DNA of 64,000 nt from NCBI GenBank assembly GCA_041641295.1, contig JBEPYO010000001.1:928001-992000 (forward strand), written 5' to 3'. This document shows positions 26,769 to 28,737 of the stretch, piece after piece. The notes below the pieces were generated by a model. The model did not search any database and was not told where the DNA came from. It was given only the letters and a program-made list of their open reading frames with translations. The stretch's first letter is position 1. Each line of letters starts with the position of its first letter. The stretch is from Nitrososphaerota archaeon. GTDB taxonomy: Archaea > Thermoproteota > Nitrososphaeria_A > Caldarchaeales > Calditenuaceae. A program made the translations under genes and the position numbers.

Positions 26769-28214
26769 TTGCCCAGCTATTCCGAGGACATGAGGGTGCG
26801 GGGGTTCGGGGGTGTGGGCGAGGTTGGGGGGAATAAATTCTACATCGAGGCCCGGGGAGAAGGCATATTCATCGACTTCGGCATAAGCTATGCCTGTAGG
26901 AGACGCTATTTCGGATTCTTTCTGAGGCCCAAAAAGTTCTCGCTACTTGCCTCGCTAATTGCATCTGGCTCTGTTCCTCTTATCAGAAACCTCTACGACG
27001 GAGAACTCTTCGACCCCACCGGCCTCACAGGCGAGGTCCTTCGCAAGGCCCCAGAACTGAACGTACAGGGCATAGTTGTCAGCCACCCCCACACAGACCA
27101 CATAGGCCACATCTCGCTACTGCGTAAAGACATCCCCGTCTATCTCGGTGAAGGGAGCTATGAGATAGCCAAGACGAGGGAGATGACCAAGACAGCGAAG
27201 ACGATAGAAGATAAAATATTCGTTGATGGAGAGAGGCCGGTCCACCTCTTCAGGACGGGCAGCAAGATTAAGATAGGCTCGTTCGAAGTGATTCCAATAC
27301 ATGTGGACCACTCGGTTCCAGGCTCTTACGGCCTTATAGTACACTCGCCGGAGGGGAGTGTAGCATATTCGGGTGATCTGAGGCTTCATGGGCCTAAGAG
27401 CGAGTTTACAGAGGAGTTTGCAGAGGCCATCGCTTCACAGGGCGTTGACGTGGTGATGATGGAGGGGACCCGGATAGGCGAGGAGGACCAGGCGACGGAG
27501 GCGGATGTGGAGAGGAGTCTAACCCGCAACATTGCGGAGAGGAGGGGATTAGTAGCGGTGCTCACAGGTCTCCTAGACTACGACCGCTTCCGCTCAATCG
27601 TCTCAGCCTCCGAGGCAGCGGGAAGAATAGTCCTCGTCTCACCTAGAATGGCCATGATGCTCAACACCTTTAGAAATCTCAGAGTCATGCCTGAGGACTT
27701 CCTCCCGGGCAAGGGGAAGGTTGAAGTTCTGGTCGAGAGGAAGGGGAGCGGTCTGCTTGACAAGCATGACTACCATGGCTGGGAGAGAGAATACTTGGAT
27801 AAACTCCTAGACAAGGGTTTGCCGTTGCTGACAGACTTGGACGTCGCGGCCTATCAGAACAAGTACACAGTAGTCCTAAACTCGCCTGACGACGTCTTAG
27901 ACCTACTACTGATGAGGCCCGTCGAAGACTCCATTTTCATCTACTCGACTAGCGAGCCTCACAACGAAGAGCAGGAAATAGACAGGGAGCGGATAGACAA
28001 CTGGCTCTCAATACTTGGCATGAAGAGCGTACAGGCCCATGCCTCAGGCCACGCCGGCAGGGGGGAGCTGGAACACATAATACAGACTGCCCGCCCCAAG
28101 AGGGTAATACCGATACACACCGAGACCCCAGAGCTATTCCAGCCCCTTCTAAGCCGGGCCGCCCCCGGCTCAACGCTTATAAACCTCCACCCCAAGACCC
28201 CAACCACAATATAA
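26769..28214 (+). CDS. metallo-beta-lactamase/beta-CASP ribonuclease (RNase J-like)
   Basis: GGVGEVGGN, SHPHTDH, VDHS, YSGDLR, HASGH, PIHTE. Confidence 0.85.
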   Translation: MPSYSEDMRVRGFGGVGEVGGNKFYIEARGEGIFIDFGISYACRRRYFGFFLRPKKFSLLASLIASGSVPLIRNLYDGELFDPTGLTGEVLRKAPELNVQGIVVSHPHTDHIGHISLLRKDIPVYLGEGSYEIAKTREMTKTAKTIEDKIFVDGERPVHLFRTGSKIKIGSFEVIPIHVDHSVPGSYGLIVHSPEGSVAYSGDLRLHGPKSEFTEEFAEAIASQGVDVVMMEGTRIGEEDQATEADVERSLTRNIAERRGLVAVLTGLLDYDRFRSIVSASEAAGRIVLVSPRMAMMLNTFRNLRVMPEDFLPGKGKVEVLVERKGSGLLDKHDYHGWEREYLDKLLDKGLPLLTDLDVAAYQNKYTVVLNSPDDVLDLLLMRPVEDSIFIYSTSEPHNEEQEIDRERIDNWLSILGMKSVQAHASGHAGRGELEHIIQTARPKRVIPIHTETPELFQPLLSRAAPGSTLINLHPKTPTTI

Positions 28215-28305: not shown

Positions 28306-28482
28306 ATGCCACGGGAGTTTGTCGTTGTAGAGTCAAAGGTTAGGGAGCTGCTGCCGGAGGGTATTAGACTGAGCAGTGACGCACTCCAGGGACTCGACGC
28401 CGTCGTCAGGCAGGCGATCCAAAAAGCCGTAGAACGCTGCAAGGCAAACAACAGGAAGACAATAATCAAGGAAGACTTCTAA
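28306..28482 (+). CDS. short histone-fold protein (58 aa), face-to-face/HTkC-like type
   Basis: Manual translation MPREFVVVESKVRELLPEGIRLSSDALQGLDAVVRQAIQKAVERCKANNRKTIIKEDF: RLS loop, RKT-x4-D motif, VVxSKV N-terminus. Confidence 0.88.
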   Translation: MPREFVVVESKVRELLPEGIRLSSDALQGLDAVVRQAIQKAVERCKANNRKTIIKEDF

Positions 28483-28540
28483 ACAGCCCAACAGGCCAAG
28501 AGACACCAACATTTATCTCCCAAATTTTTAGGCTATACTG

Positions 28541-28595
28541 TGGGTGATGATAGCGGGTATTTCTGAGCTGTGATGAGGATACCCGCTCTGACCCA
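28541..28595 (+). ncRNA. box C/D sRNA
   Basis: C GTGATGA 28544-50, D' CTGA 28563-66, C' GTGATGA 28570-76, D CTGA 28588-91; 12- and 11-nt spacers; terminal stem TGGG/CCCA; TATA-like TTTATC at about 28512. Confidence 0.9.
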
Positions 28596-28737
28596 TAATC
28601 AGGCCGCCTATCCTATCCAAACAGAGAGCTATTCAGCCAGCTTATCACTATATTCTGGGTAAAAACTTCATCGAGATATTCCTGGAGTCCGTCGCAAAAC
28701 AATCAAAAGAATCTATGTGGTCGTCAATAGGTTTGTC

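Follow-up and report, generated by a model that had tools for sequence, protein, structure and literature searches.

The window (the whole 64,000-nt stretch of DNA that was analysed) carries a box C/D sRNA on its plus strand, between positions 28540 and 28596. Reading from the 5′ end, the pentanucleotide GTGGG (28540..28544), predicted to form a terminal stem with CCCAT (28592..28596), is followed by box C TGATGA (28545..28550), with G28544 directly before it as the purine of the consensus, by the 12-nt D′ guide TAGCGGGTATTT (28551..28562), box D′ CTGA (28563..28566), a D′-C′ loop GCT(G) whose G28570 precedes box C′ TGATGA (28571..28576), the 11-nt D guide GGATACCCGCT (28577..28587) and box D CTGA (28588..28591). 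All four boxes correspond to the archaeal consensus, as the preliminary description of this locus had stated. The element has what is expected of archaeal box C/D sRNAs: RUGAUGA and CUGA motifs near the ends (here, GTGATGA and CTGA) flanked by a short terminal stem, and, in the interior, boxes D′ and C′ with a short loop between them and guides close to 12 nt in length (12 and 11 nt). The predicted fold of the naked sRNA has an energy of −25.9 kcal/mol (z = −4.15), and none of 200 shuffled sequences was as stable. Genes for the partner proteins fibrillarin (302.5 bits) and Nop (226.2 bits) are located next to each other on contig C1 of the same genome.

A search of the window with Rfam at gathering thresholds returned no matches. 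Below these thresholds, four generic C/D families match the element over their full models and share its box architecture and length, but their guide regions do not align with it: snoPyro_CD (RF00095; 38.3 bits, gathering score 45), which covers the whole element, sR2 (RF01139; 35.2 and 42), sR3 (RF01133; 30.1 and 41) and sR28 (RF01136; 18.9 and 39). For Rfam sR28, it is the consensus guides that do not align with the guides of the present sRNA, and a whole-genome search with this model did not return the sRNA locus. We take the Rfam sR models to be Pyrococcus families that are distinct from the Pca sR28 discussed below.

The sRNA begins 58 nt downstream of a 58-aa ORF (28306..28482, plus strand), the distance given in the preliminary description. 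The designation of this ORF as a histone gene remains unproven, its match to the Pfam model CBFD_NFYB_HMF being 17 bits at a cut-off of 21.4; the product is best called weakly histone-fold-like. Just upstream of the ORF, a 481-aa metallo-β-lactamase protein with an RMMBL RNA-specificity domain (RNase J/aCPSF-like) is encoded at 26769-28214 (plus strand). The synteny of ORF and sRNA extends to six of the genus's seven other genomes, namely G002-G007, whereas the match in G001 was confined to the ORF part; in other families, the sRNA is located elsewhere. A TATA-like element had been reported in front of the sRNA, and it is found as TTTATCT (28512-18), after which comes an A/T-rich block (whole region 28511..28532, plus strand). 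The block, ATTTATCTC..AATTTTTAGG, is kept in 7/7 genomes of the genus, and the sequences further upstream are unrelated in G007, G002 and G004. In family f4, an A/T-rich TTTATTTA block is present at a similar distance from the sRNA. Judging by its sequence, the 28511..28532 region is probably the sRNA's own promoter.

Complements of both guides were found in the 16S rRNA of the same genome. The D′ guide forms 10 contiguous Watson-Crick pairs with TAATACCCGCTC (A532-U541) on the 3′ side of helix 18, its N+5 position, T28558, being opposite A535; at least nine pairs to rRNA or tRNA and a Watson-Crick pair at N+5 (here U:A535) are what is expected of an archaeal guide. The D guide is in register with GTCGGGTGTCA (C512-C519), the 5′ strand of the same helix, to which it pairs over eight contiguous positions (seven Watson-Crick pairs and one U:G pair at G517) with a C:G pair at N+5 (C28583 opposite G514); in the window's genus, this duplex has a mismatch at guide position 2. 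Helix 18 is the 530 stem-loop of the decoding centre, in which 512-516 pair with 535-539. The E. coli numbering used here was checked against Dennis et al. 2015 (PMC4644070), according to which G507 corresponds to G530 and A512 to A535. Since the D guide/rRNA duplex of eight pairs is below the nine-pair rule of that paper, methylation of G514 is less certain than that of A535. For double guides, PMC4644070 relaxes this rule and accepts U:G wobble pairs, and it is only under the relaxed version that the D guide qualifies.

The preliminary description had proposed looking for targets in rRNA and tRNA, and for both guides the search led to 16S helix 18. The tRNAs offered nothing convincing: the best of 35 predicted tRNAs had 6-7 Watson-Crick pairs along with G:U pairs and mismatches. 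An alternative D-guide site in 23S rRNA, GGTGGGAATCC, was rejected because of an internal mismatch at position 7. An exact complement of either guide is absent from the whole genome (1.56 Mb), apart from the antisense strand of the sRNA gene itself; when one mismatch was allowed, there were eight other sites for the D′ target, none of them in an rRNA gene, and 42 for the D target. The 16S gene (C1:443156-444647) and the 23S gene (C1:529899-532964) are ca. 85 kb apart and therefore unlinked, and a small contig (C4:923-2555) carries a second, partial 23S copy that is either a duplicate or foreign. A literature search for RiboMeth-seq yielded no archaeal 16S map that covers the two sites, and h18, O-methyl, modified nucleotides and sRNA are absent from the main text of a cryo-EM paper on the S. 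acidocaldarius ribosome.

Homologues were collected from the class that comprises Caldarchaeales/Aigarchaeota (Caldarchaeum, Wolframiiraptor, Calditenuaceae), represented by 76 genomes of four families. A pattern consisting of box C and the D′ guide matched 52 of the 76 genomes and had no match in the reversed control. Three genomes (G025, G022 and G057; loci L103, L104 and L108) were dropped because their matches were without boxes, G040 and G065, each with a second sRNA copy, entered the count once, and 49 genomes were parsed as containing the sRNA. The D′ guide is nearly invariant across all 49, with GGGUAUU present in 47 (G063 and G037 differ), and in every one of them it pairs with 16S rRNA over 9-12 positions that include N+5. 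The core of the D guide (positions 3-9) is kept in 42/49 homologues and pairs with the 5′ strand of helix 18 over 7-10 positions, while positions 1-2 beside box D vary freely. These pairings were scored with helix 18 as recovered from 43/76 genomes, the family consensus being assumed for genomes without an assembled 16S gene; within the 43, the helix is invariant save for position 511, which is U in family f1 and A in the other families, and for a variant with C541 and a single case of U512. In the seven genomes of genus g6, the D′ guide is kept and the D guide is unrelated. The 16S matches of G003, G021, G027, G030, G036 and others span 1.8-3.2 kb, compared with 1478 positions in the model, which suggests that the 16S genes of several relatives contain introns.

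sRNAs that target helix 18 through both guides have been described before. According to PMC4644070, Tte sR114, Pca sR28, Sac sR115 and Iho sR21 have a D′ guide aimed at 16S A512 (E. coli A535) and a D guide aimed at G491, 21 nt upstream on the opposite helix 18 strand (given there as E. coli G515). The authors infer that joint binding of the two guides has been under strong selection. In the present sRNA, the D′ guide targets A535 and the N+5 position of the D guide is G514, so the spacing is the same (535 − 514 = 512 − 491 = 21). The two sites, the D′/D order and the 21-nt spacing are therefore shared with the four published sRNAs, a likeness drawn from the published description of the sites rather than from the sequences of those sRNAs. 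The element is thus a Caldarchaeales member added to the already described family of helix-18 double guides. The family members differ in that the Caldarchaeales sRNA has a U:G pair at G517 and a guide-guide complementarity of 8-11 pairs, compared with 3-8 in the Thermoprotei homologues considered below. A second precedent is provided by Nanoarchaeum equitans sR17 and sR15, the guides of which bind opposite strands of one rRNA helix (h28 and h30) and for which a chaperone role was proposed (PMC4644070) and repeated in a 2021 review (PMC7994747). The h28 and h30 strands are hundreds of nucleotides apart, whereas the present sRNA addresses two strands of a single local hairpin that are 21 nt apart. 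Within the searched passages of PMC4644070, PMC7994747 and PMC6009581, neither Caldarchaeales (Aigarchaeota) nor mutual complementarity of the guides is mentioned, and full-text searches did not return a statement of the latter.

The feature that originally drew attention to the locus is the complementarity between the guides. The segments AGCGGGTAT and ATACCCGCT are exact reverse complements that form nine contiguous Watson-Crick pairs, or 11 pairs with two G:U, just as had been described. Runs of at least nine contiguous Watson-Crick pairs occurred in 23 of 300,000 random 12-mer/11-mer pairs of the genome's composition; the mutual complementarity is above chance. The same genome has 11 further C/D-like candidates that match rRNA, and their inter-guide runs are 3-6; this background sample is small, since a strict regular expression recovered two candidates and a looser one combined with an rRNA filter recovered 12 (reversed-genome control, one). 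Degenerate boxes are common in this genome, and simple expressions therefore recover few sRNAs. Other double-guide candidates at C1:1310486, C1:1392322 and C1:262584 (all on the minus strand) have guide pairs that target nearby rRNA sites (23S 2727/2705; 23S 1824/1843; 16S 907/1360).

The guides are complementary to each other because they address opposite strands of one helix. Since 512-516 pair with 535-539 in the rRNA, at least five complementary guide positions are forced, and the guide-guide complementarity is a geometric by-product of the two targets. The greater length of the self-helix in Caldarchaeales comes mainly from a single U at D position 8, the one that forms the wobble pair with G517. 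This U is present in 39 of the 42 homologues with a conserved D core and, together with further pairs beyond it, extends the guide-guide helix to 8-11 pairs. In G027, G044 and G049, which represent two events (G027/G044 and G049), position 8 is C, which makes a Watson-Crick pair with G517 and a mismatch to the D′ guide.

We next consider homologues outside the class. A degenerate pattern applied to one genome per prokaryotic species retrieved 46 loci, 21 of which, with the same architecture, come from Vulcanisaeta, Thermoproteaceae, Desulfurococcales, Sulfolobales and Fervidicoccaceae; since the search pattern itself prescribed GTATT for the D′ guide and RYAC for the D guide, this Thermoprotei set is ascertained at those positions. 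The D′ guides are xxxCTGGTATTx-like or have TTGG, with T opposite 16S position 538 in 16/21 and A in the other five; the D guides are xxGACACCAGxx-like, with A opposite position 513 in 21/21. In four Thermoprotei 16S sequences, the two helix 18 strands read CUGGUGUC...ACCAGCC (CUGGUGUCAGCC...UAAUACCAGCC). The rRNA pair 513:538, a G:C in Caldarchaeales, is accordingly a U:A in these four Thermoprotei, and the two guides have changed with it: D position 4 and D′ position 8 are C:G in 42/42 Caldarchaeales and A:T in 16/21 Thermoprotei. The preliminary description had suggested looking for compensatory changes between the spacers; those at D4/D′8 track the rRNA pair 513:538. D position 8 is C in 19/21 Thermoprotei and interrupts the guide-guide helix, leaving runs of 3-8 pairs. 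The four-way covariation (the rRNA pair 513:538 and both guides) supports the published idea of coupled binding of both helix 18 strands.

On these grounds, we consider it highly probable that the element is a canonical archaeal box C/D double-guide sRNA acting on 16S helix 18. It would be transcribed from its own promoter with the TTTATCT element and would assemble with L7Ae, Nop5 and fibrillarin. The complex would then bind both strands of the nascent 16S rRNA while helix 18 is still open, directing 2′-O-methylation to A535 and probably also to G514. Upon its release, the two strands could anneal and the hairpin close, which would amount to a chaperone effect. Out of the three readings offered in the preliminary description, it is that of a guide that opens both strands of one target helix which fits, the two strands of helix 18 being those paired by the guides. 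The description had also put the locus forward as an undescribed system. This part has to be given up: the same two sites, the same D′/D arrangement and the idea of strand sequestering are in print (PMC4644070), and, by and large, each spacer has a target of its own and homologues lose the mutual complementarity, which is the outcome that the description itself had named as speaking against its proposal. The finding adds the Caldarchaeales (Aigarchaeota) branch to a family of guide RNAs that modify the decoding-centre hairpin and has little significance beyond annotation. It also shows that, where the guides of a C/D sRNA are complementary to each other, a comparison with the two strands of an rRNA helix should come first.

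The strongest case for a different function can be made in the window's genus, g1, where the D spacer might no longer be an active guide and might mainly serve as the intramolecular partner of D′, closing a hairpin lid; opening of this hairpin would gate RNP assembly or target binding and would be either auto-inhibitory or stabilising. The genus has the longest self-helix (10-11 pairs) and one of the shortest D guide/rRNA duplexes (eight pairs) in the class. D positions 1-2 (CT) match the D′ guide and not 16S 510-511, and the C at position 2, found in 7/7 g1 genomes, makes a Watson-Crick pair with D′ and a mismatch to U511; in genus g2, conversely, an A at this position pairs with U511 and is mismatched to D′. 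The prevalence of U8 in the class is in line with a lid as well. In silico, the self-helix persists at 80 °C (−6.4 kcal/mol) and at 90 °C (−3.5 kcal/mol), and a Sulfolobaceae homologue is unfolded at 80 °C, although energy parameters at such temperatures are extrapolations. However, the states of g1 count as one event, all of them being within one genus, and the U:G wobble that weakens the rRNA duplex is accepted in double guides (PMC4644070). Moreover, U8 is changed to C in three genomes and the whole D guide is replaced in seven, with the D′ guide kept in both cases. We therefore regard the loss of guide function in favour of a lid as unlikely. When the guide-guide run is compared with the D guide/rRNA run, it is the longer of the two in 20 of the 42 homologues and the shorter in 19, with equal lengths in three.

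A related reading, in which tuning has made the Caldarchaeales sRNA a closed, thermostable mimic of the helix 18 hairpin, so that the self-helix is selected and not a by-product, seems to us quite improbable. Tuning would consist in the use of U instead of C opposite G517 and in the matching end positions of the window's genus. If the reading were true, it would imply a hairpin-to-hairpin strand exchange with nascent rRNA or an opening step that gates RNP assembly. The modelled persistence of the self-helix at high temperature is the sole unusual feature of the sRNA, and it depends for the most part on a single wobble position.

The D′ guide could also, or instead, bind 23S rRNA at AAGUGCCCGCUA (LSU 1144-1155 of this genome), with which all 12 of its positions pair (10 Watson-Crick and two G:U pairs). 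The final A of the site pairs with the genus-specific 5′ U of the D′ guide, and the 12-nt site is unchanged in 37 of 39 matches from 37/76 genomes (G028 and G061 differ). Yet the two G:U pairs fall on N+3 and on N+5, the methylation position; GGGUAUU, the form present in nearly all homologues, is the Watson-Crick complement of AAUACCC in 16S rRNA and not of AGUGCCC in the 23S site; and in Thermoprotei, the D′ guide follows the change in 16S rRNA. We consider a role of the 23S site very unlikely.

Finally, the two other functions proposed in the preliminary description, namely self-targeting, in which one sRNA copy methylates another, and a decoy, in which the closed RNA titrates L7Ae/Nop5, hardly deserve credence and are not needed. 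In their favour, 11 pairs could form in trans between the D guide of one molecule and the D′ spacer of another, and the genome has no exact complement of either guide apart from the antisense strand of the sRNA gene. However, the complementarity is not conserved (3-8 pairs in 21 Thermoprotei and 4-5 in the seven g6 genomes), both guides track the rRNA sequence instead, and the boxes are indistinguishable from those of ordinary guides.

Several homologous loci deserve a separate comment. The g6 loci (L044-L048, L109 and L110) have the same box C and D′ guide, a longer structured D′-C′ loop and a D guide ending in …TCCGTGCAGGAA, whose best rRNA match comprises eight pairs only, at ca. 1381 of 16S rRNA, in the helix-44 region. 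In G044 and G027 (L078 and L079), the variant D guide AACGCCCGTT and its CTGA are directly followed by the D-guide core typical of that genus, CAATACCCG. The arrangement suggests that a new module of guide and box D has been inserted before the old guide, which would be an instance of guide-module turnover. Two sRNA copies were detected in one bin in G040 (C2 and C33), which also has two helix-18 matches, and in G065 (C98 and C168); they could be due to true duplication or to mixed strains in the bin.
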